Positions 2,572-30,827 of a stretch of DNA of 64,000 nucleotides are shown piece by piece. A program made the translations under genes and the position numbers. Numbering within the stretch: the first letter of the stretch is position 1; every line of letters starts with the position of its first letter. Source of the stretch: Escherichia phage phT4A; sequence record NC_055712.1; one strand, given 5' to 3'. The notes below the pieces were generated by a model. That model searched no databases. It saw only the letters and a list, made by a program, of their open reading frames with translations, and was not told the DNA's origin.

Positions 2572-3476
2572 AACGCCTTCTTAATTTGTTTTGCTATGGC
2601 TTCAATCACTGGGATGGAAACTGAATTCCCAGCCTGTTTGTAAGCCTGTATTTTGCTTTCAGGGATGATAAACGAATCCGGAAACCCTTGTAACCTAAAA
2701 CATTCTCGCGGGCTTAATCTTCTAGGGTTCTTACCTTCCTGTAATACCAGACATTGAACACCGTCCTTTCCATATTGGGCTGTTATCGTCCCAGTACACA
2801 CAGAATCCACCATAACGGCCTGATAACCAAACCCCTTGCCGTTTGCCTTGTTTCGTTCTTTACGCTCTCTAAAGCCCTTCCAGGCACGATCTGATATGGT
2901 GTATTGATCATTATCCGGTTCGAGAATGTCACCGACCCTTGTTGGGGTACGTGGAGGAACAGGAAAACTAAAGAACACTGGATCGCGAAAGCAGACAATA
3001 AACACACGCTCTCTTCGTTGAGGCAATCCAAAATCTTTTGTATTCATTACCTGATAATGGATATCGTATCCTTCGTCCTGTAACAGCCTGTAGATGGTTT
3101 TAAACGTGTTTCCCTTGTCATGGGTTAATAGCTGGGGAACATTCTCAAAGAACAGCACAGAGGGCTTTTTAGCCCGTATAATGCGGAGTATTTCAAAGAT
3201 GATAGTACCGCGAGGATCTAACATGCCCTGTTTTAAACCTGCTTTACTGAACGCCTGACAAGGAAACCCAGCTAACAGGATATCATGATCAGGCACATCA
3301 TTTTCATCAATGGCGAATATATCACCCTGAATATTTTCATCGCCCCAGTTATCAGCATATGTTTGTTGTGCATGTTTATCGATTTCAGACGTTAAAAGGC
3401 ATTCGACCCCGCCGAATGCCTTATCGAAACCGAGCCTCACGCCACCAACACCAGCGCAAAGGTCAATTATTTTCAT
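2553..3476 (-). CDS. DNA (cytosine-5)-methyltransferase
   Basis: motif I DLCAGVGG, motif IV PCQAFS (catalytic Cys), motif VI ENV, 307 aa. Confidence 0.9.
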   Translation of the reverse strand: MKIIDLCAGVGGVRLGFDKAFGGVECLLTSEIDKHAQQTYADNWGDENIQGDIFAIDENDVPDHDILLAGFPCQAFSKAGLKQGMLDPRGTIIFEILRIIRAKKPSVLFFENVPQLLTHDKGNTFKTIYRLLQDEGYDIHYQVMNTKDFGLPQRRERVFIVCFRDPVFFSFPVPPRTPTRVGDILEPDNDQYTISDRAWKGFRERKERNKANGKGFGYQAVMVDSVCTGTITAQYGKDGVQCLVLQEGKNPRRLSPRECFRLQGFPDSFIIPESKIQAYKQAGNSVSIPVIEAIAKQIKKALCHIMD

Positions 3477-3739
3477 ACGTCGAAATCAACCTCATCGATT
3501 TTGTATGATTCTTCGCCAATATCAGCCCATAGCTGAATATTCACGCTTTTCGCATCACGATAAAGAGATTGACCACAAAGCCCACCTGTATAACAAGTTT
3601 CTGTAATCTCGTTAACTTCCAGGCGGAGGCTATTGCGCATAATTTTAACAACAGCCTTTTCCATTGCAGAATCCAGGGTTTTAGTATCACCCAATACTAC
3701 ATCTTTAACGTTCAAAATAACATCACTCATTATCGCCAC
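3473..3739 (-). CDS. hypothetical protein
   Basis: 88-aa ORF, start overlaps upstream stop. Confidence 0.4.
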   Translation of the reverse strand: MAIMSDVILNVKDVVLGDTKTLDSAMEKAVVKIMRNSLRLEVNEITETCYTGGLCGQSLYRDAKSVNIQLWADIGEESYKIDEVDFDV

Positions 3740-3975
3740 TCCGTTTCAATTCCGTGTTTGTATGCGTCAACGCCCAGAGGGGTGATCACTAAACACATAT
3801 CAGTATTTTTCGTTGGTGAACTAAACGCCATAGATGCATAACCTTTTTGAATCAGGGCATCACGCCCCGATTTACTGGGAACATCGTTGAAATCTAAATC
3901 CAACATTTTTGACGAGTATCTGTAAAGTTTACACAGAACATCAATTTCAGCGCCGGATAATTTCGGGTATGTCAT
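3730..3975 (-). CDS. hypothetical protein
   Basis: 81-aa ORF. Confidence 0.4.
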   Translation of the reverse strand: MTYPKLSGAEIDVLCKLYRYSSKMLDLDFNDVPSKSGRDALIQKGYASMAFSSPTKNTDMCLVITPLGVDAYKHGIETEWR

Positions 3976-4739
3976 TTGTAGTACCTCACAACATGTTCAG
4001 AATACACACGTTCAATGAAATCATTCCAGAAATCGCGATCAACTTCTTTCGGATAACCAGATACAGCCGCCAGCTTTTCAACTTCACACATCGTTGATTC
4101 TAGCGCCTCTTGTACGGTTGCGAAAGGAACACCGCCAGCTTTAACCATTTTCAAAAATGCGCTATCCGGAAGAGGATACACAATATCACCTTCTTTGAAA
4201 ATCTGGATCAATTGCATACCACCGCGCAACGCATGAGAAAGAGCTTTCCAGTCGATCCCGTTGTTGGCTTCTGCTTGCCGTGCGCGTTCCCCGTATTCAT
4301 CCCAGAGTTTATACACGGATTTCTTCATTTCCGCTACAGTGATCGTAGACTGGAATTTACGCCCCAGAACTTCATAAAATTCCTGACAACCTGATTTCAG
4401 TGTTTTGTCTGTAACGAATCGACAAAACTCATTGGTCGGGAATCGGTTAGAAATCTCACCAACTTTGATGCGCTTGCCGTAATTAGATTCATCCACGTTA
4501 CCCAGCAATGATGTACCATACCAGTAATCGGGAATCATTTGTAACACATCAACAACTTCACGCAGTGCCGCCAGGCGAGAACCTTTAACACCATACTTCG
4601 CCGCTTGCTTACGAACATAACCAAACAGGCCAGTTAATTCCGTAGTGTAGAAGCGCGAACGGTTAGCGCGGAGATATTGCCAGATATCAGAGTTAGCGAT
4701 CAGCTTGCTATCATCTGCATGAAGCATATCAATCGCCAC
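3972..4739 (-). CDS. hypothetical protein (5' boundary uncertain, assembly gap upstream)
   Basis: 255-aa ORF; upstream region runs into N-gap 4941-5040. Confidence 0.45.
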   Translation of the reverse strand: MAIDMLHADDSKLIANSDIWQYLRANRSRFYTTELTGLFGYVRKQAAKYGVKGSRLAALREVVDVLQMIPDYWYGTSLLGNVDESNYGKRIKVGEISNRFPTNEFCRFVTDKTLKSGCQEFYEVLGRKFQSTITVAEMKKSVYKLWDEYGERARQAEANNGIDWKALSHALRGGMQLIQIFKEGDIVYPLPDSAFLKMVKAGGVPFATVQEALESTMCEVEKLAAVSGYPKEVDRDFWNDFIERVYSEHVVRYYK

Positions 4740-20177: not shown

Positions 20178-21328
20178 TTCAATTCCACCGCGTATACATC
20201 CAATTCAGGGGCTTTGTGTACGCGCATATCTTTACCACATACAGCATAAGCCGGACAGTTACGGCAACCATTATGATCCTTATTACCGATCAATTCCTGA
20301 CGGAATTTCTTAGTTTTCGGATGTTCCCAGATATCTTTGATAAAGTCACTGGCTTCCAGTACGTTAAGCCCTTCTGACCATCCACCCTCGACCCAACGTT
20401 CAGTAAAGGAACAAGGGAAGAATTCACCCTTCTCGTTGATGTACGAGCTAAACATAGTTGCTTCGCAATCTTCCGCGTACTGTTTGTATTGTTCAAAATT
20501 TTCATGCCCTTCCATAGCCTCTACAAAGGCCGGAGCGGAACAGGAATCAAAACCGAACCCTACACCGGATTCAAGGCAATAATCTACCAGCGCTTTATAC
20601 TGCTCGCGTGTAACGGTATCCCAGTTCTTCCCACGACCTTTTTGTTTCAGACCCAGGAATACGATCGCGTTAACTTGTTTCAAGCGCGGATCATTCTTTA
20701 CAGCATCAACCACGTTAAACGCGTCATCATAGGTTTTAGAGCTAACCATGAAATGAAGGTTGATTTGCTGTTGTCCGGCTTCTGCAAGATTAGCCACTGA
20801 ATTAAACGCTACATCGAATCCAGCATGTTTGTATACTGATACCGCAACAGCCCCAGCAACAGCCGCTAAACGCGCTGCAACGTCTTTTGATACATCAGCA
20901 ATGGTAAGGTTCGGCACAATGCCTTTAGAACGCGCATAGGCCATCATATCAAACATATCAGGGTTTGTTTGTCCCTGTGCATCAGCACCGAGGGCGCATT
21001 GAGTCAGCCAGGGCATTTTGTCGATGATTTTGGTGAAGGTGGCAAGATCCATGTTGAACCCGTTCGGGTTATTGGACTTGTAGCAGAACCCGCAGAGTTT
21101 ACCCGCTGGCCCGTTGCATTTGGTAGTGATCTCGATATCGAGGATAAAAGGAAAATGACTATAAATAGGATCGTCAGCAGGAGTTTTTCCCCAAGTCATC
21201 ATATGACCTGTTTTCATATCAAAATTAAAATTAACCTCTTCGGAACGATAGATTTTCTTTCCTTTCGCTTCCAGTAGAAGTCCAACAGGCGTTTTGATAT
21301 GTTTGGCGTTTACTTTAACGTGTCTCAT
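20174..21328 (-). CDS. Cys-rich putative Fe-S / radical-SAM-like enzyme (uncertain)
   Basis: N-terminal cluster ITTKCNGPAGKLCGFCY (Cx8CxxC) and C-terminal CRNCPAYAVC (SPASM/twitch-like); start set at MRHVKVN with GAGG RBS. Confidence 0.35.
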   Translation of the reverse strand: MRHVKVNAKHIKTPVGLLLEAKGKKIYRSEEVNFNFDMKTGHMMTWGKTPADDPIYSHFPFILDIEITTKCNGPAGKLCGFCYKSNNPNGFNMDLATFTKIIDKMPWLTQCALGADAQGQTNPDMFDMMAYARSKGIVPNLTIADVSKDVAARLAAVAGAVAVSVYKHAGFDVAFNSVANLAEAGQQQINLHFMVSSKTYDDAFNVVDAVKNDPRLKQVNAIVFLGLKQKGRGKNWDTVTREQYKALVDYCLESGVGFGFDSCSAPAFVEAMEGHENFEQYKQYAEDCEATMFSSYINEKGEFFPCSFTERWVEGGWSEGLNVLEASDFIKDIWEHPKTKKFRQELIGNKDHNGCRNCPAYAVCGKDMRVHKAPELDVYAVELK

Positions 21329-21340
21329 AGGAACCTCATA

Positions 21341-22069
21341 ATGTATTACGTTTACAGAATCACGAATGTTATAGAGAACAAGCACTATTATGGATCAAGA
21401 AAACCTAAAAAGTCAATGCTTGCTTCCGACGATTTAGGGAAACACTATTTCAGTAGTTCCCGTGATAGTCATTTCATCCAGGATCAGAAGGAAAATCCAG
21501 GACACTACAAATATAAAATAATCGTATCTGGGTTGTCAAGGGAAAAAGCGATGAAACTTGAGAAAAGGTTACACGAAATCTACAAGGTGGACAAGAACCC
21601 ACATTTTTATAACAAACACATACACAACAGCATTGATTTTTCATGTACGCCAGAAACAGGAAAGAAGATTTCTCAAACACATCAGAAATACGCAGCAAAG
21701 AAAATCTCAGAATCCCATAAAAGGCGATTCAAGGAAGGTATTGCATCACACAAAGGAGAGAACAACCCACGATACAACGACCATCGGTCTTATGAAGAGA
21801 TACACGGAGAGGAAAGAGCGGAAGCTATACGTAAAGCGCAATCTGAATCAAGAAGTGGAAAAGGCAATTCCCGCGCGGTTATGTGGAGATTTACTTCCCC
21901 TACTGGAGAAGAATTTTTAGTTGAAGGAGAATGTAAAAAGTTTTGCAAAGACAGAAATATTTCCATGCGCAAACTGAAAACATATTTTGGTGAAGTCATC
22001 ACAACATGTGATAAACCCTACGATATCTCTAAGAATACCGTAGGATGGAAATTAGAAAAGATTATTTGA
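21341..22069 (+). CDS. GIY-YIG homing endonuclease (seg-like), divergent from neighbours
   Basis: MYYVYRITN...HYYGS GIY-YIG motif, basic K/R/H-rich C-terminal region; sole + strand gene in a minus-strand block; AT-rich. Confidence 0.7.
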   Translation: MYYVYRITNVIENKHYYGSRKPKKSMLASDDLGKHYFSSSRDSHFIQDQKENPGHYKYKIIVSGLSREKAMKLEKRLHEIYKVDKNPHFYNKHIHNSIDFSCTPETGKKISQTHQKYAAKKISESHKRRFKEGIASHKGENNPRYNDHRSYEEIHGEERAEAIRKAQSESRSGKGNSRAVMWRFTSPTGEEFLVEGECKKFCKDRNISMRKLKTYFGEVITTCDKPYDISKNTVGWKLEKII

Positions 22070-24649: not shown

Positions 24650-24827
24650 TAGAAACCTCACTTTTATAAAATTCTTTACCAGTCCCATTACAGCTACTGC
24701 ATTTGGGGGAACGGTTGCTATCATACCGCCCCGATCCGTTACATGCAACACATTTCCTTAATTTCCAGCCATACACGAACCTCATATAATAATCAGTTCG
24801 TGCGGCCTTGCGTTCGTGGAAATTCAT
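24633..24827 (-). CDS. small DnaJ-type zinc-finger (CxxCxGxG x2) protein
   Basis: CVACNGSGR and CSSCNGTGK. Confidence 0.4.
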   Translation of the reverse strand: MNFHERKAARTDYYMRFVYGWKLRKCVACNGSGRYDSNRSPKCSSCNGTGKEFYKSEVSNERIK

Positions 24828-24967
24828 TCGATTTCTACCGAGTAACCTTCTTTACGTTTTTGGTCAGCGAAATTTCTTGCGCCTCCCCAATCGTAACAGG
24901 TTCTACGACCAACTTCTGAATCATTATGAAACCAAATCACGGTATATCGCTTTCCCATAATAACCTC

Positions 24968-25171
24968 TTAAACTTTGTTGTAAACCTGAACCAACCACAT
25001 TTCGATGTTAGGCGCGTAAGTAACGTTTACCTTATGCATTGTGCGGTATTTGTAAGCGGCTTTGTATGCATCGAGTTCAGTCGGAACACAGAAAGAGAAA
25101 CCGTTGTCATAGCGTTCTGCGTTAGAAACTTCACAACCAACTACAGCGGCAATATTTTTGTTCATGTTCAT
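24968..25171 (-). CDS. hypothetical protein
   Basis: start MNMNKNIAAV after PeSL leader with AGGAAAACATC RBS. Confidence 0.45.
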   Translation of the reverse strand: MNMNKNIAAVVGCEVSNAERYDNGFSFCVPTELDAYKAAYKYRTMHKVNVTYAPNIEMWLVQVYNKV

Positions 25172-25186
25172 GATGTTTTCCTTTCT

Positions 25187-25250
25187 CTGTTTCGTTTCGA
25201 TGTGTGTAATATAACAAAGCCCCTGCACTAATGCAAGGGCTTTTTGATTA
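25187..25250 (-). promoter_or_regulatory. PeSL-like early promoter-stem-loop cassette
   Basis: TTGCAT (25236-25231) -17 nt- TATATT (25213-25208) with hairpin GCCCTTGCATTAGTGCAGGGGC; leader ACACACATCGAAACGAAACAG. Confidence 0.65.
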
Positions 25251-26162
25251 TTTTGGTAATTTTTCGATTGTTGCTTTCAACTCATTGATTTTATTAAAGA
25301 GTTCATCGCTATATTTCATCAACTCACTACGGCGTTTTTCGGCCCACTTGATCAGGAATTCAGGAGAATCTACACCATACGTGTAACCTTCTGCACTCAG
25401 TTGAATACGAGCACGGGAACCATAATCAACAGAACTTTGTTCAATGAGAAACTTAACCGCATCAAGCAGGGCTAAATCTTCATGACTTACCATGATTCCT
25501 TCTGCCTTTGGAAGATCCACAACTTCATCCTGAATGAGTTCACGGCGGGTTGTTTCTTCCAGTGTTTCATGATTCTGGATCATCGTTTCGACCGGATCCT
25601 TTGCCACGGCTGGTTTGTTTTCACCTACTTCTTCCAAAAACATCAAAATCCATCCAGGAATTTTAGTCCGGAAAGAACTTTGTACTTCACTGGTGCATGA
25701 ATTTCCCAGAATGTGGATCGCGTTACCATGCATATCAGCTTTATTGATATAGATAACGTTCTGCTGTTCCTGTCGGTTGCTACCATAAGAAAGGAAGCGG
25801 CGTAACGATGTGTTATGACCATACTTCCCTAAATCGATTTCAGCCAGGCAATCAATGATCCCACGGTTAGAAACCTTGTAACGCTTACCCTGTTTGAAAA
25901 ATAACGATTCTTCCAGGTGAGTAGGGGTAAACTCTTCATAAAGAACATAGAATTCTTTAGGAATTTTGCGCTGAACCAGACTCAGTTTACAATTATTAGA
26001 AGGAACAATAACAGAGTGAATGTTTCCTTCGGTATCACACATAGCTTGCATTACTTGCGGATAGTAAAGATGGTCTTTCTTGCAAGTATAGCTATGGATA
26101 CGACTCTGACGTTTTTTGAAGTACCATTTACCAGTTTCAAAAGGCGCTGTTGTAAAATTCAT
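25248..26162 (-). CDS. hypothetical protein, translationally coupled to upstream DUF262 gene
   Basis: 304-aa ORF; 4-nt overlap with 26159-26689. Confidence 0.45.
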   Translation of the reverse strand: MNFTTAPFETGKWYFKKRQSRIHSYTCKKDHLYYPQVMQAMCDTEGNIHSVIVPSNNCKLSLVQRKIPKEFYVLYEEFTPTHLEESLFFKQGKRYKVSNRGIIDCLAEIDLGKYGHNTSLRRFLSYGSNRQEQQNVIYINKADMHGNAIHILGNSCTSEVQSSFRTKIPGWILMFLEEVGENKPAVAKDPVETMIQNHETLEETTRRELIQDEVVDLPKAEGIMVSHEDLALLDAVKFLIEQSSVDYGSRARIQLSAEGYTYGVDSPEFLIKWAEKRRSELMKYSDELFNKINELKATIEKLPK

Positions 26163-26689
26163 TTTGCATTCTCATACATAGTTAAAATTGCTTGCATATG
26201 TTCCGGTGATTGTGGAACCCCTGCAAAGTTCACTTTCAAAAAGAAATTCAACCGATCTTTTATGTTGCACTCATCGAGTCCAAGCGCTGGCAATGAAATG
26301 TTTTCAAAAGCACGTTGTTCATGTCTTTCCATTTCACCCCAAAACAAACGGGAACCGTTAGGCATCGGTATTCCAATTTCATTGTTCCAGAATTTCATGA
26401 TAGTTGTCAAGCGTTGTTTTCCATCAATGACTTCTACCCATCGAGATTCGTTGAATTCACTATCAACCGCGATCGCAATGATACCGCAAGGAAACCCAGT
26501 AATCAAAGTCTTCATGAAAGCATCTTGCTCTTTCTGCTTCCACACGTAGGGCCGCTGATAGGACGGATTCAGATCCAGATCGTTGTTCTTGAACCAATGA
26601 ATGTAACTACCAACCATGATCGCATGATCGCGACTTTGGAAAGTTTTTAACTCACGAATACGGTTTCTTACAATTTCGTCTGTCATTAT
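26159..26689 (-). CDS. DUF262 / ParB-like nuclease domain protein
   Basis: LNPSYQRPYVW and VIDGKQRLTT (DGQQR-type motif); start set at MTDEIV (ATGA overlap with upstream stop). Confidence 0.6.
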   Translation of the reverse strand: MMTDEIVRNRIRELKTFQSRDHAIMVGSYIHWFKNNDLDLNPSYQRPYVWKQKEQDAFMKTLITGFPCGIIAIAVDSEFNESRWVEVIDGKQRLTTIMKFWNNEIGIPMPNGSRLFWGEMERHEQRAFENISLPALGLDECNIKDRLNFFLKVNFAGVPQSPEHMQAILTMYENAK

Positions 26690-27009
26690 AAAATCACCAT
26701 CCAGTATATAATCGTAATCATAACCGCTACAGTGAAACACATTGCAGCATACACACGCGCATTATGAACCTGTGTTTTCAATTCTGCGATCTCTTGATCC
26801 TTTTCGCTTTCAAACTCTTCGCGAGTACCATAATACCCAGGATCGTTAGCAGTTGCCAATCTAACCGCATCTTTTTCAACCAGCGTTGCGTAACCGCTTT
26901 TTATTTGTGTCGCCCCGTACCATCCACCCCGATCGTTGTTAATGATCAGATGATCGCCTTTTTCGTTATGCTTTGATTCGCCAACAACAATAACCCGCTT
27001 ACCATTCAT
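26686..27009 (-). CDS. hypothetical protein with C-terminal TM helix
   Basis: 107-aa ORF, hydrophobic tail AAMCFTVAVMITIIYWMVIL. Confidence 0.4.
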   Translation of the reverse strand: MNGKRVIVVGESKHNEKGDHLIINNDRGGWYGATQIKSGYATLVEKDAVRLATANDPGYYGTREEFESEKDQEIAELKTQVHNARVYAAMCFTVAVMITIIYWMVIL

Positions 27010-27037: not shown

Positions 27038-27295
27038 CTATTTCGCGTTCTTCTGTAGATAATCTAACAGATTTCCGCTTTGATGTAAATCCAAAACTTT
27101 AGAAAACTTCTCTGCGTTTCTTTCGTTTGTGAGTTCGTCGAAATGCCATACACCATCATCAGCTATTAACGCGCCAGGTGATGAACCTGTTTCTACATCA
27201 CGGGAAAGCGCAAGCCCCAGAGGGTGTAAGATTTCGCGGTTAATGCGCCAAACAAGGCCCATTTCAGATAGAGTAGTAAAATCGACGTATTTCAT
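27038..27295 (-). CDS. hypothetical protein
   Basis: 85-aa ORF. Confidence 0.4.
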   Translation of the reverse strand: MKYVDFTTLSEMGLVWRINREILHPLGLALSRDVETGSSPGALIADDGVWHFDELTNERNAEKFSKVLDLHQSGNLLDYLQKNAK

Positions 27296-29595: not shown

Positions 29596-29659
29596 GCCTC
29601 CTTTGTTTCGACAAGGCCAATATAACAAAGCCCCTGCACGAATGCAAGGGCTTTTTTCA
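29596..29659 (-). promoter_or_regulatory. PeSL-like early promoter-stem-loop cassette
   Basis: TTGCAT-17-TATATT with hairpin GCCCTTGCATTCGTGCAGGGGC, near-identical to copy at 25187-25250. Confidence 0.6.
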
Positions 29660-30203: not shown

Positions 30204-30827
30204 TCACTGATTTTTGAAGTATTCGATCTGACGCAAACGCTTTTCAGCGGCGGCTTTCGAATCGTATTCACCAAGTTCTTTTGTGTGATCGTGATTCAAA
30301 ACAACCCACTTATCGCCACGCTGTTCAATGTGTTCTGTAATATCTTTTAACGACTTATCCAGATCCAGTGATTCAGCCTCTTCACAGATAATAGTCAAAT
30401 CCACGGGCAGTGTCAACAACCTTTTTACTCCGCTGATATCATCAAGCATCGAATCGTATGCAAGGGTTACGTGCGGTTTGTAATCCGGATAATCGTATGT
30501 TGCGCCAGCATCAATAGAATCTTTGAAACGGCTATGCAGGTATTCAGATTCCAGGATCCCTACGATAGTGCTACCGTATTTTGTGTCCCACTTTTCAACA
30601 TCAACCAGTTTAGCAGGTTCTGTGATGTCCTGTTGCGGGAACAAATCAACCGTTTTCCGGCTGTATACGATCGTTGTATGCATCTTTTCGGCTGAAACAG
30701 CATTCTTTGTGATACCTAATGTCTTTTGAACATTTTTCAAAGCCTCACATGAAGCCTGATCGAATTTAGCACACATGTAGATACCAGGATCTACAACAGG
30801 TTTTGTGATTTCAAGAAATGATTTCAT
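30204..30827 (-). CDS. 57B: 2H phosphoesterase, T4 57B/Acb1-like
   Basis: two HxT motifs (MHTTIVY and PHVTLAY) typical of the 2H fold; position next to 57A and gene 1 as in T4. Confidence 0.55.
   Translation of the reverse strand: MKSFLEITKPVVDPGIYMCAKFDQASCEALKNVQKTLGITKNAVSAEKMHTTIVYSRKTVDLFPQQDITEPAKLVDVEKWDTKYGSTIVGILESEYLHSRFKDSIDAGATYDYPDYKPHVTLAYDSMLDDISGVKRLLTLPVDLTIICEEAESLDLDKSLKDITEHIEQRGDKWVVLNHDHTKELGEYDSKAAAEKRLRQIEYFKNQ

Follow-up and report, generated by a model that had tools for sequence, protein, structure and literature searches.

The window, which is the whole stretch of 64,000 nucleotides that was analysed, belongs to Slopekvirus, a KP15/KP27-like group of T4-type Klebsiella phages. 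On its minus strand, a gene for a 175-aa DUF262 protein (mini-DUF262) runs into a gene for a 304-aa partner. The genes and the elements that surround them are listed here.

26686..27009, minus strand: upstream ORF of 107 aa whose C-terminal tail is hydrophobic (PHROG 7472)
26159..26686, minus strand: mini-DUF262 gene, 175 aa (Pfam PF03235, E=7.1e-19; AF2 model; family alignment)
26159..26162, minus strand: ATGA stop/start overlap, formed by the TGA of the DUF262 gene and the ATG of the partner and read directly from the sequence
25248..26162, minus strand: partner gene, 304 aa (PHROG 10932), predicted to be adaptor-like and non-enzymatic
25208..25243, minus strand: PeSL-like element, a predicted 12-bp GC-rich stem-loop terminator between TTGCAT (-35-like) and TATATT (-10-like)
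29619..29654, minus strand: second copy of the PeSL-like element with one mismatch, found by terminator scan and repeat search

PeSLs are promoter-early stem-loop cassettes of the hyperplastic regions of T4-type phages. They were described for RB49 and phi1, and recombination at PeSLs shuffles the ORFans of such regions (PMC2839356). The repeat in the window is 36 nt long and is present in two copies, where none is expected by chance. Like the PeSL cassettes, it is a repeated element of ~36 nt in which a -35-like and a -10-like hexamer enclose a GC-rich stem-loop, and the repeats flank strings of early genes that are rich in ORFans. Unlike the RB49 and phi1 elements, the match is at the sequence level only and the -35 is weak: TATATT is a good -10 hexamer, but TTGCAT agrees with the -35 at 3 of 6 positions and falls under the scanner's threshold. 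The copy at 29619..29654 heads an early cassette of ~4.4 kb, and the DUF262/partner pair is its end. The element at 25208..25243 is predicted to end this cassette and probably promotes the next gene.

The 107-aa ORF lies directly upstream, and its TAA stop overlaps the DUF262 ATG (TAATG). It shares 80% identity with its counterpart in CF2 and 59% with that in RB43. The ORF is co-conserved in Slopekvirus and Pseudotevenvirus. Its membership of the module is uncertain because JC221-type loci lack it. Genes with a putative role in host interaction, NudE and an Acb1-like gene among them, also lie in the early accessory region near the pair.

The DUF262 ORF had been placed at 26159-26689 in an earlier note made from the sequence alone. 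The ORF is real and lies on the minus strand, but this start is 3 nt off because positions 26689-26687 read ATA. The ATG is at 26686-26684, which makes the gene 26159-26686 (175 aa), and GenBank relatives are annotated in the same way. A GTG at 26740 opens the longest ORF and was dropped as a start, as the homologue alignment gives it no backing.

The assignment of this ORF to DUF262 is borne out by profile search. Pfam PF03235 (GmrSD_N) matches at E=7.1e-19 and 69.1 bits, against a cut-off of 33.2, although the match spans profile positions 4-78 of 199 only. The PADLOC NsnA model matches at E=3e-18 (model positions 45-196), PHROG 1583 at 1.4e-58, and the PADLOC PD-T4-2_A model at 1.7e-13 (residues 32-102 only). 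Judged by these profiles, the 175-aa ORF is a genuine DUF262/GmrSD_N protein, and the assignment is far beyond chance. The two strings named as its signature are both found: YQRPYVW spans residues 43-49, and (V)IDGKQRLTT spans residues 86-95. DUF262 is defined by the motifs QRxxxW, DGxQR, and FxxxN (PMC12065111), which fall in the gene as follows.

26540..26557, minus strand: motif I, QRxxxW (Q44, R45, P, Y, V, W49), with Q44, R45, and W49 invariant
26411..26425, minus strand: motif II, DGxQR (D88, G89, K90, Q91, R92), with D88, G89, Q91, and R92 invariant
26228..26242, minus strand: motif III, FxxxN (F149, L, K, V, N153), with invariant columns

Invariance was read from family alignments of 23 and 25 sequences, with members down to 25-38% identity. 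After motif III, residues G156, Q159, S160, and H163 are also invariant and are specific to the family. Motif II aligns with the DGQQR of PDB DUF262 chains and is the predicted NTP-binding centre. Motif conservation suggests that the DUF262 protein is an NTPase.

Structure prediction had been proposed for both proteins. For the DUF262 protein it gives a confident model with a ParB/Srx fold (AF2, pLDDT 89.4). Foldseek matches the model to the N-terminal domains of ParB, Noc, and KorB and to PadC (6ryk), BrxU, SspE, and Srx, with PadC and Srx ranking near the top. For ParB, Noc, PadC, and BrxU the probability is 0.99-1.0; the E-values are weak (~2e-3), and the TM is ~0.43. Only 22 residues follow motif III, and the protein covers just the N-terminal ~180 positions of PHROG and PADLOC models that are 352-417 positions long. 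No ParBDB DNA-binding domain, DUF1524, or HNH was found in it by Pfam, PADLOC, the AF2 model, or the alignment. The protein is predicted to be the ParB/Srx-type NTP-binding core alone. DNA sensing by such a core is not assured because the ParBDB domain is missing. Some proteins of the ParB/Srx fold act on small molecules or proteins.

GenBank labels on family members include 'ParB-like partition protein' and 'chromosome partitioning protein'. A role in ParB-type partition or DNA segregation, as in some of these labels, agrees with a fold like that of the ParB, Noc, and KorB N-terminal domains. However, a helix-turn-helix or any other domain for binding DNA is lacking, as are a C-terminal dimerisation domain and a ParA partner, and the protein carries the DGKQR of the DUF262 clade rather than the GERRxR CTP box. 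The genome is also that of a virulent T4-type phage without a plasmid stage. The partition reading is effectively refuted by domain content.

The partner was originally described as an ORF with no recognisable motif, and no Pfam, NCBIfam, or PADLOC match was found for it. It matches PHROG 10932, and residues 216-304 also match PHROG 15764. The family is rare, with 17 clusters among 1.84 billion representative proteins. The AF2 model of the partner reaches a pLDDT of 64; it shows barrels and helices, and the linker between them is of low confidence. The parts of the protein are as follows.

25923..26141, minus strand: predicted beta-barrel domain 1 (~residues 8-80), basic, pI 8.5
25620..25901, minus strand: predicted beta-barrel domain 2 (~residues 88-181), basic, pI 9.3
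25491..25613, minus strand: acidic linker (residues 184-224), pI 4.35, pLDDT <50
25251..25490, minus strand: C-terminal module (residues 225-304), a helix, a conserved loop (Y260), and a long terminal helix

The order of strands and helices is identical in the modelled domains 1 and 2, and F-x-x-GK-(W/R)-Y opens both. On the model, domain 2 is an internal duplicate of domain 1, and the barrels are predicted to be SH3-like. The linker varies in length and is gapped in the family alignment. The C-terminal module is a stand-alone protein of 99-104 aa in RB43-type phages and is the portion of the partner that is always kept beside the DUF262 gene. Searched against the PDB, it gives coiled-coil near-matches only. 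No conserved catalytic-type residues were found in the family alignment of the partner, no nuclease fold in the structure search, and no DUF1524, HNH, or HEPN match in Pfam, PADLOC, or NCBIfam. The model points to a non-enzymatic, adaptor-like protein.

Other relationships of the partner were considered and rejected. The half that the phage protein lacks relative to long DUF262 proteins, the C-terminal ParBDB, is not supplied by the partner: the partner matches none of PHROG 1583/2598, NsnA, PD-T4-2_A, and SspE, and it is predicted to form beta-barrels plus two helices rather than an eight-helix bundle. Comparison by hhalign gives little sign of kinship between the barrels and the N-terminal extensions of DUF262 relatives of 277-288 aa (probability 0.2). 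The 'LALLD' motif shared by the C-terminal module and the Ead/Ea22 proteins encoded after DUF262 in temperate phages is a chance likeness (hhalign probability 0.3).

The partner diverges much faster than the DUF262 protein, with 22-56% identity against 73-80% in the same phage pairs and dN/dS of ~0.25 against ~0.03. Within Slopekvirus, dN/dS is ~0-0.06 for the DUF262 gene and ~0.2-0.3 for the partner, from small counts. Judging from these ratios, purifying selection acts on both genes in this genus.

The 4-nt overlap reported between the two genes is present as ATGA at 26159-26162 and had been taken as the sign of a co-translated pair. As stand-alone evidence the overlap is discounted because 4-nt overlaps occur at 11 of 71 local same-strand junctions (15%), and 42% of these junctions overlap somehow. 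The SD pairing of the partner, at -2.7 kcal/mol where the local median is -3.9, is weak and within the background range. The linkage is nevertheless borne out by comparative evidence. Wherever the context of a partner-family locus was inspected, which covers some of the 117 GenBank matches and the metagenomic loci L011-L013, a mini-DUF262 gene precedes the partner at a distance of 0-1 genes. Linkage is seen in Slopekvirus, in Lw1/Miller/CF2, in RB43-type phages (C-terminal module only), in JC221, in three metagenomic lineages, and in Phynn, and the DUF262 proteins of these lineages share 43-100% identity. All five IMG/VR partner loci (5/5) are on contigs that also give a mini-DUF262 match. The -4 junction itself is kept in nearly all mini-DUF262 loci at ≥40% identity, and it recurs before at least five unrelated downstream families, with an HNH nuclease among them in one lineage. 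The DUF262 gene and its partner are a real, phage-specific linked pair.

Alternatively, the two could be independent accessory genes that abut in a tight early operon, with an overlap that means nothing. The 15% background of 4-nt overlaps would agree with this, as would the shuffling of ORFans by PeSL recombination in hyperplastic regions (PMC2839356). The DUF262 gene also occurs with those five or more unrelated downstream families and stands alone in Phi1. Set against these points, the partner is never more than one gene from mini-DUF262 at the inspected loci, even where the DUF262 proteins are only 43-48% identical, and the five IMG/VR loci and Phynn are all linked. In RB43-type phages, moreover, the partner was shortened and both the C-terminal module and the ATGA junction were retained. 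Chance adjacency is quite unlikely.

Members of the mini-DUF262 family are proteins of 167-177 aa with 39-99% identity. The minimal architecture is the norm and not a truncation, because the family comprises 25 clusters of this length plus dozens of viral contigs. Full-length enteric matches in bacterial genomes are few, and all are prophages or phage contigs. The family is coherent and almost exclusively viral. Its T4-type carriers are canonical-cytosine lineages with their own cytosine methyltransferases (Dcm-type). No paper on a phage-encoded stand-alone DUF262, or on the KP15/KP27 copy of the gene, was found in the literature.

The gene downstream of mini-DUF262 differs between lineages. 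Phi1/RB49-type phages have mini-DUF262 and no coupled partner, so that the protein can act by itself or with factors encoded elsewhere. The coupled gene of temperate phages encodes an Ea22-like protein, which may simply be the next gene of the operon. In one viral lineage (L139), mini-DUF262 is joined by a 4-nt overlap to an HNH endonuclease; its DUF262 protein is 32% identical to that of the window. When the alternative downstream proteins were scanned with PADLOC, the L139 HNH protein weakly resembled Septu PtuB and no other resemblance was found. Among the immediate neighbours in other lineages (224 clusters), no informative Pfam match was found in those scanned.

The DUF262 domain had also been called nuclease-like, and this claim is not supported: the core carries no DUF1524/HNH and no ParBDB, and the partner has neither a nuclease fold nor conserved catalytic residues. 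GmrSD, BrxU, and SspE share with the phage protein the PF03235 N-terminal domain with QRxxxW, DGxQR, and FxxxN, and sequence-profile matches connect it to PDB 9jfl, 7p9k (BrxU), and 6jiv (SspE). However, those proteins are 560-820 aa long and add a His-Me/HNH nuclease and, in the middle, a helical domain that binds DNA. The phage protein, at 175 aa, has neither domain, and its partner is not a nuclease. In searches with Pfam, PADLOC, and NCBIfam, the nuclease domain of a GmrSD-type Type IV system was found in neither protein. The helical ParBDB that follows the core in such systems is likewise lacking, and the partner does not match those PHROG and PADLOC models either.

A split Type IV system would be a phage-borne analogue of GmrS/GmrD in which mini-DUF262 senses modified DNA and the 304-aa partner destroys it; the DNA of rival T-even phages, with its hmC or glucosyl-hmC, would be one such target. 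DUF262 is the sensor of modified DNA in all characterised systems, and T4-type carriers lack hmC and would therefore not target themselves. Two-subunit GmrS + GmrD and the L139 pair resemble the window's pair in that DUF262 and effector are on separate adjacent polypeptides, and L139 couples the two by the same 4-nt overlap, but the window's partner lacks HNH and DUF1524. A split Type IV system is very unlikely.

Menshen NsnA, the best PADLOC match, and PD-T4-2_A/Dazbog DzbA also place a DUF262 gene beside a separate, variable effector gene. NsnA is ~385 aa, has an obligatory ParBDB, and works with the NsnB ABC-ATPase and the NsnC nuclease (PMC12065111), and PD-T4-2 pairs DUF262 with HEPN. At the phage locus, the neighbours are the 107-aa ORF with its TM tail and the 304-aa partner; no ATPase and no PADLOC match was found among them, and the partner has no HEPN match. 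Menshen and PD-T4-2/Dazbog are bacterial defences, whereas the mini-DUF262 family is viral. The -4 junction with unrelated downstream genes fits DUF262 defence systems, in which a constant sensor goes with variable effectors. The ParB-like domain of PadC and sulfiredoxin are also compact ParB/Srx cores without a DNA-binding domain. Cores of this type are nucleotide-binding modules that act through a bound partner protein. They differ in having a GERRxR-type box rather than the DGxQR of the DUF262 clade; the likeness is one of fold only, and the biology is unrelated.

Another possible role, put forward in the earlier note beside action against competing phages or host DNA, is that of a decoy. 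Mini-DUF262 would mimic the N-terminal domain of host GmrSD/BrxU, SspE, Dazbog, and Menshen enzymes and would shield the methylated DNA of the phage through inactive heterodimers or competition for DNA or NTP ligands, with the partner targeting or stabilising it. The early accessory region beside putative host-interaction genes (NudE, Acb1-like) would suit such a protein. BrxU cuts 5mC DNA through an NTP-controlled dimer-monomer cycle, the carrier phages encode Dcm-type methylases, and the partner evolves fast. However, the DUF262 protein is 73-100% identical across phages of different host genera, with dN/dS of ~0-0.06. Beyond DGQQR, the GmrSD-family proteins of hosts have almost nothing in common (PMC12373910), and one conserved mimic is therefore unlikely to pair with them. 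The strict invariance of all three motifs also argues for an active enzyme over a passive mimic. A decoy role is doubtful.

The tentatively preferred reading, held at a little under even confidence, is that the pair is an NTP-driven switch and its adaptor in phage-host or phage-phage conflict and not a restriction nuclease. The pair would be a phage-specific accessory module whose two genes close an early cassette within a hyperplastic region. The DUF262 core would bind and hydrolyse NTP and so undergo a conformational switch, by analogy with BrxU, GmrSD, and SspE. The partner, a rapidly evolving adaptor, would be translated from the ATGA overlap. Its two basic SH3-like barrels probably bind a target (DNA or protein), its acidic linker would be flexible, and its C-terminal helical/coiled-coil module probably serves for docking to the DUF262 protein or for oligomerisation with it. 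The adaptor would couple the switch to a lineage-specific target. The phages concerned would be T4-type phages whose cytosine is canonical (methylatable), and the conflict would fall in the early phase of infection. We infer the NTPase activity, the physical interaction, the binding of a target, and the role in conflict. The uncoupled mini-DUF262 of Phi1/RB49-type phages, the Ea22-like neighbour in temperate phages, the frequency of gene overlaps, and the missing ParBDB weigh against this reading.

A broader and improbable extension is that mini-DUF262 is an NTPase switch of phages that reads DNA modification, works with exchangeable effectors or adaptors, and discriminates between types of DNA, a viral counterpart of Type IV, Menshen, and Dazbog systems. 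The coupled genes would be the SH3-barrel adaptor, a multi-TM protein, the HNH nuclease, and the Ea22-like protein, and the users would be canonical-cytosine T4-type phages and some temperate phages. If true, such phages would, for example, tell their own 5mC DNA from host DNA or from the hmC DNA of T-even phages, for superinfection exclusion or host-DNA discrimination.

Few sensor domains recur as widely in the anti-phage immunity of bacteria as DUF262 (GmrSD, BrxU, SspE, Menshen, Dazbog, PD-T4-2). The locus explains the 'DefenseFinder protein' label that has been left uncommented in therapeutic Klebsiella phage genomes, and this label matters when Slopekviruses for phage therapy are annotated for safety and host range. 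The locus represents a compact, almost wholly viral clade in which the catalytic core is kept and the rest is passed to a coupled, fast-evolving partner. If this core is an autonomous NTP switch, it would be a minimal system for dissecting the DUF262 mechanism, and phages would share the module of their hosts, to fight rivals or as a counter-measure.

The window comes from a Slopekvirus, the KP15/KP27 group of T4-type Klebsiella phages. It carries a pair made up of a mini-DUF262 gene, encoding the ParB/Srx-fold, predicted NTP-binding core alone, and a downstream partner gene. The 2.2-kb stretch around the pair matches vB_KpnM_Squirrel_ER27 at 99.9% identity and dozens of other phages at 98% or more. 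Existing database labels for the two genes are 'hypothetical', 'DUF262 domain-containing', and 'DefenseFinder protein'. Every gene in the neighborhood is on the minus strand, in an accessory region that lies between the 57A/gene 1/gene 3 block and the lysis and tRNA side and holds nudE and numerous small ORFs. The ORF listing and direct reading give the following genes.

26159-26686, minus strand, mini-DUF262 gene, 175 aa
25248-26162, minus strand, partner gene, 304 aa

The ORF that the earlier note placed at 26159-26689 exists, but its start is 3 nt off: the ATG occupies 26686-26684. This ATG is overlapped by the TAA stop of an upstream 107-aa ORF (TAATG). The motifs quoted for the protein, YQRPYVW and IDGKQRLTT, are present, and it matches Pfam PF03235 (GmrSD_N, formerly DUF262) at 69.1 bits against a cut-off of 33.2 (E=7e-19), in an alignment spanning profile positions 4-78 of 199 only. 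The best PADLOC models are Menshen NsnA (3e-18) and PD-T4-2_A (2e-13), and PHROG 1583 is matched at 1e-58; these PADLOC and PHROG models are 350-420 positions long, and the protein reaches no further than about position 180 in any of them. DUF262 is defined by the motifs QRxxxW, DGxQR, and FxxxN (PMC12065111). All three are invariant in the family (Q44-R45...W49, D88-G89-x-Q91-R92, and F149...N153), as are the family-specific residues G156, Q159, S160, and H163.

AF2 models the protein with confidence (pLDDT 89.4), and the fold matches ParB, Noc, PadC, KorB, BrxU, SspE, and sulfiredoxin with a probability of ~1, yet with weak E-values and a TM of ~0.43. The sequence profile reaches the PDB DUF262 chains 9jfl, 7p9k (BrxU), and 6jiv (SspE). 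A ParB partition protein is ruled out by domain content. In NsnA, DndB, GmrSD, and SspE, DUF262 goes with an eight-helix DNA-binding domain, ParBDB (PMC12065111), whereas the window protein has only 22 residues after motif III and therefore lacks this domain. The protein is a complete, if minimal, domain rather than a fragment. Distant relatives of 265-288 aa (P0026-P0032, L135-L137) add to the core a 110-150-aa N-terminal extension, composed of a basic or coiled stretch and a 'KVGD...VLEV.D.G.YKV' segment with the look of a small beta-barrel. Homology between these extensions and the partner was not detectable.

The partner was described as having no recognizable motif, and this holds across Pfam, PHROG, PADLOC, and NCBIfam searches, where the sole full match is its own PHROG 10932. 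PHROG 15764 (102 positions) is matched as well, by the last 90 residues. AF2, working from a five-sequence alignment (pLDDT 64), predicts four parts. Two tandem beta-rich domains (barrels; about residues 13-78 and 93-181, pLDDT 75-85) have an identical strand/helix order, both start with F-x-x-GK-(W/R)-Y, and are basic (pI 8.5 and 9.3). An acidic, low-confidence linker (residues 184-224, pI 4.35) is followed by the C-module (residues 225-304), a helix and conserved loop closed by a 35-residue terminal helix. A profile search run exhaustively against 1.84 billion representative proteins found just 17 partner clusters at E <=1e-3, without informative fusions among them; family members are ~100 aa (C-module alone) or 260-330 aa. 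Because residues invariant in the alignment with divergent homologues are mostly aromatic or structural, with a few scattered charged ones, and because the YGHNTSLRR loop is kept in close relatives and not in JC221-type proteins, the partner is read as non-enzymatic, a putative binding or adaptor protein. In a metagenomic T4-type lineage (L011, 2705-3460), a 251-aa gene upstream of DUF262 encodes a barrel-like 'L.IGK.Y' start and a coiled-coil end; the layout is like that of the partner, with no BLAST similarity to it.

The TGA of the DUF262 gene overlaps the partner ATG by 4 nt (ATGA), as noted earlier. Such overlaps make up 15% of local same-strand junctions (11/71), and 42% (30/71) overlap in some way. 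Partner Shine-Dalgarno pairing is weak (-2.7 kcal/mol) and inside the local range. Against this background, the overlap alone does not mark a co-translated pair; the linkage itself is upheld by comparative evidence, which is the stronger argument for a DUF262-partner unit. At each partner-family locus with inspected context, the partner lies 0-1 genes downstream of a mini-DUF262. This linkage contradicts the reading of the two genes as unrelated neighbors, which is ranked lower for that reason. The partner (304-319 aa) is coupled directly to DUF262 in Slopekvirus and in Lw1, Miller, and IME-CF2. In JC221, in Phynn, and in three metagenomic lineages, DUF262 is coupled to a ~150-aa multi-TM ORF, and a 266-328-aa partner homologue comes next. 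RB43-type phages encode a coupled 99-104-aa protein that is the C-module only. The IME-CF2 and RB43 DUF262 proteins are 97% identical, yet the two barrels are present in IME-CF2 and lost in RB43; the loss is therefore recent, and it spared the C-module as well as the ATGA junction.

Nearly all loci at or above 40% DUF262 identity have the -4 junction, with at least five unrelated downstream families: the partner, Ead/Ea22-like proteins (ST64B-like temperate phages), a ~103-aa protein (~148-kb phages), the multi-TM protein, and several singletons. Of these, the Ead/Ea22-like proteins are taken up next. In ST64B-like prophages (L004, L105-L117, L129), these DUF262-coupled proteins are mosaic, with exchanged middle sections between a common N-terminus (MSNIDKQAL) and C-terminus (AAGIKVEGE). 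Phi1/RB49-type phages have a mini-DUF262 without a coupled gene, which counts against obligatory pairing. On a viral contig (L139, IMG/VR UViG_3300046512_000087, about 3001-4430), a 163-aa mini-DUF262 of 32% identity overlaps by 4 nt a 313-aa HNH endonuclease, which matches Pfam HNH_5 (3e-8) and HNH above cut-offs and, weakly, Septu PtuB. This split GmrSD-like layout shows that arrangements of this kind occur in other phages. For the present pair, the reading as a split restriction nuclease is ranked lower because the partner is without nuclease features; the 175-aa mini-DUF262 protein has no nuclease domain either, and the nuclease label used in the earlier note is not supported.

Where the DUF262 proteins of two phages are 73-80% identical, the partners of those two phages are 22-56% identical. 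Inside Slopekvirus, the DUF262 gene has a dN/dS of about 0-0.06 and the partner gene one of about 0.2-0.3 (small counts). The pair therefore consists of an enzyme-like component that stays constant and a companion that changes fast. The suggestion of a pure decoy for host DUF262 enzymes is ranked lower, because the protein is too conserved against the extreme diversity of host GmrSD proteins (PMC12373910) and its catalytic motifs are kept strictly.

The mini-DUF262 family is composed of 25 clusters of 167-177 aa in a large protein database, from 99% down to 39% identity, with many further full-length relatives on viral contigs (down to ~25%). Among bacteria, searched at one genome per species, full-length relatives are confined to a few prophage- or phage-like enteric contigs, and all other matches cover residues ~25-100 only, within ordinary long DUF262 proteins. 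The family is essentially viral. A 178,077-bp contig in an assembly labelled Flagellimonas marina, a marine member of the Flavobacteriia, encodes an RB43-like mini-DUF262 (L014, 78% identity) and is probably a T4-type enterobacterial phage genome inside a bacterial assembly.

By tblastn, the DUF262 protein is found in 298 phage records and the partner in only 117. Carriers include Slopekvirus, Pseudotevenvirus (RB43 group), JC221, Hena1-like phages, ST64B-like temperate phages, and, at 35% identity, Krischvirus (RB49/Phi1 group). Only 52 Escherichia records match, the matches listed being Krischvirus-like, and we infer that T-even genera with hmC are without the gene. KP15 and KP27 reportedly lack hydroxymethyltransferases and glycosyltransferases and have predicted Dam and Dcm methylases (PMC5219037). 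None of the known non-canonical-base enzymes occurs in the RB43 or RB49 group; both groups encode a cytosine methyltransferase, specific to the group in each case (PMC8056088). Phi1 has its DUF262 gene in a single overlapping string with an annotated DNA methyltransferase, which lies two genes upstream.

L005 1451-3016, Phi1 string: ORF187 (mini-DUF262), ORF188 (zinc-ribbon), ORF189 (annotated DNA methyltransferase)

The ORF189 annotation has no Pfam match; FDGSG, FPPC, and ENP motifs were seen by eye only.

A 36-nt element, AAAGCCCTTGCATTnGTGCAGGGGCTTTGTTATATT, is present in two copies with one mismatch, where 0 are expected by chance.

25208-25243, minus strand, PeSL-like copy 1, directly after the partner stop
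29619-29654, minus strand, PeSL-like copy 2, 4.4 kb upstream of copy 1

The element is made up of a 12-bp GC-rich stem-loop, then a T-rich tract. These lie between the hexamers TTGCAT and TATATT, which are spaced 17 nt apart; TTGCAT is a weak -35 match. PeSLs (promoter-early stem-loops) terminate and initiate early transcription and mediate ORFan shuffling in hyperplastic regions of T4-type phages (PMC2839356). By sequence likeness, the element fits the PeSLs described as mobile regulatory cassettes in RB49 and phi1 (PMC2839356), and it may have promoter and terminator activity. The copies bracket a 4.4-kb string, and the pair therefore forms the end of a probable early cassette that holds about eleven ORFs, nudE among them.

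Several other genes of the region were noted. A plus-strand 256-aa homing-endonuclease ORF (21299-22069) with a GIY-YIG-like N-terminus ('YVYRITN...KHYYGS') lies amid minus-strand early genes, adjoining a ~385-aa ORF named Fe-S oxidoreductase in other records; it is shared with Squirrel_ER27 and missing from the same site of phage Roth22. Several Roth phage records give the name 'anti-CBASS protein acb1' to an 85-aa protein (27038-27295, minus strand), whose sole match is Pfam DUF7415 (E=4e-12). The likelier Acb1-type candidate is ORF 30204-30827 (annotated 'RNA ligase', adjoining 57A), because the syntenic gene of a metagenomic locus (L013) bears PF23474 Acb1. Downstream of the pair lies ORF 24968-25228 (minus strand), whose probable start is the ATG at 25171. 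The resulting 67-aa protein (MNMNKNIAAVV...) is near-identical by eye to a 67-aa ORF downstream of the RB43 pair and matches PHROG 7982 (1e-47). Compared with a relative, the gene has 5 synonymous differences and 0 nonsynonymous ones. Several GenBank Slopekvirus records place two plus-strand ORFs (24743-24919 and 24926-25231) over this gene, which looks like a strand mis-annotation, the 67-aa gene being the conserved one.

A literature search found no paper on this mini-DUF262 gene. The DUF262 domain is already known; the minimal virus-restricted clade, its consistently coupled yet interchangeable downstream partners, and the partner family itself appear not yet to have been described. All characterized systems use DUF262 as an NTPase that detects modified DNA and governs an associated effector (PMC12065111 among the sources). 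The core encoded here has kept all motifs and lost its own DNA-binding and effector parts, and it is paired with a fast-evolving, non-catalytic protein, of which the C-module is the constant element. The best-supported reading of the pair is a predicted NTP-driven switch, the mini-DUF262 core, with an adaptor module whose C-module would serve for docking or oligomerization and whose basic barrels would bind the target. Switch and adaptor would act early in infection, in conflict between phage and host or phage and phage.
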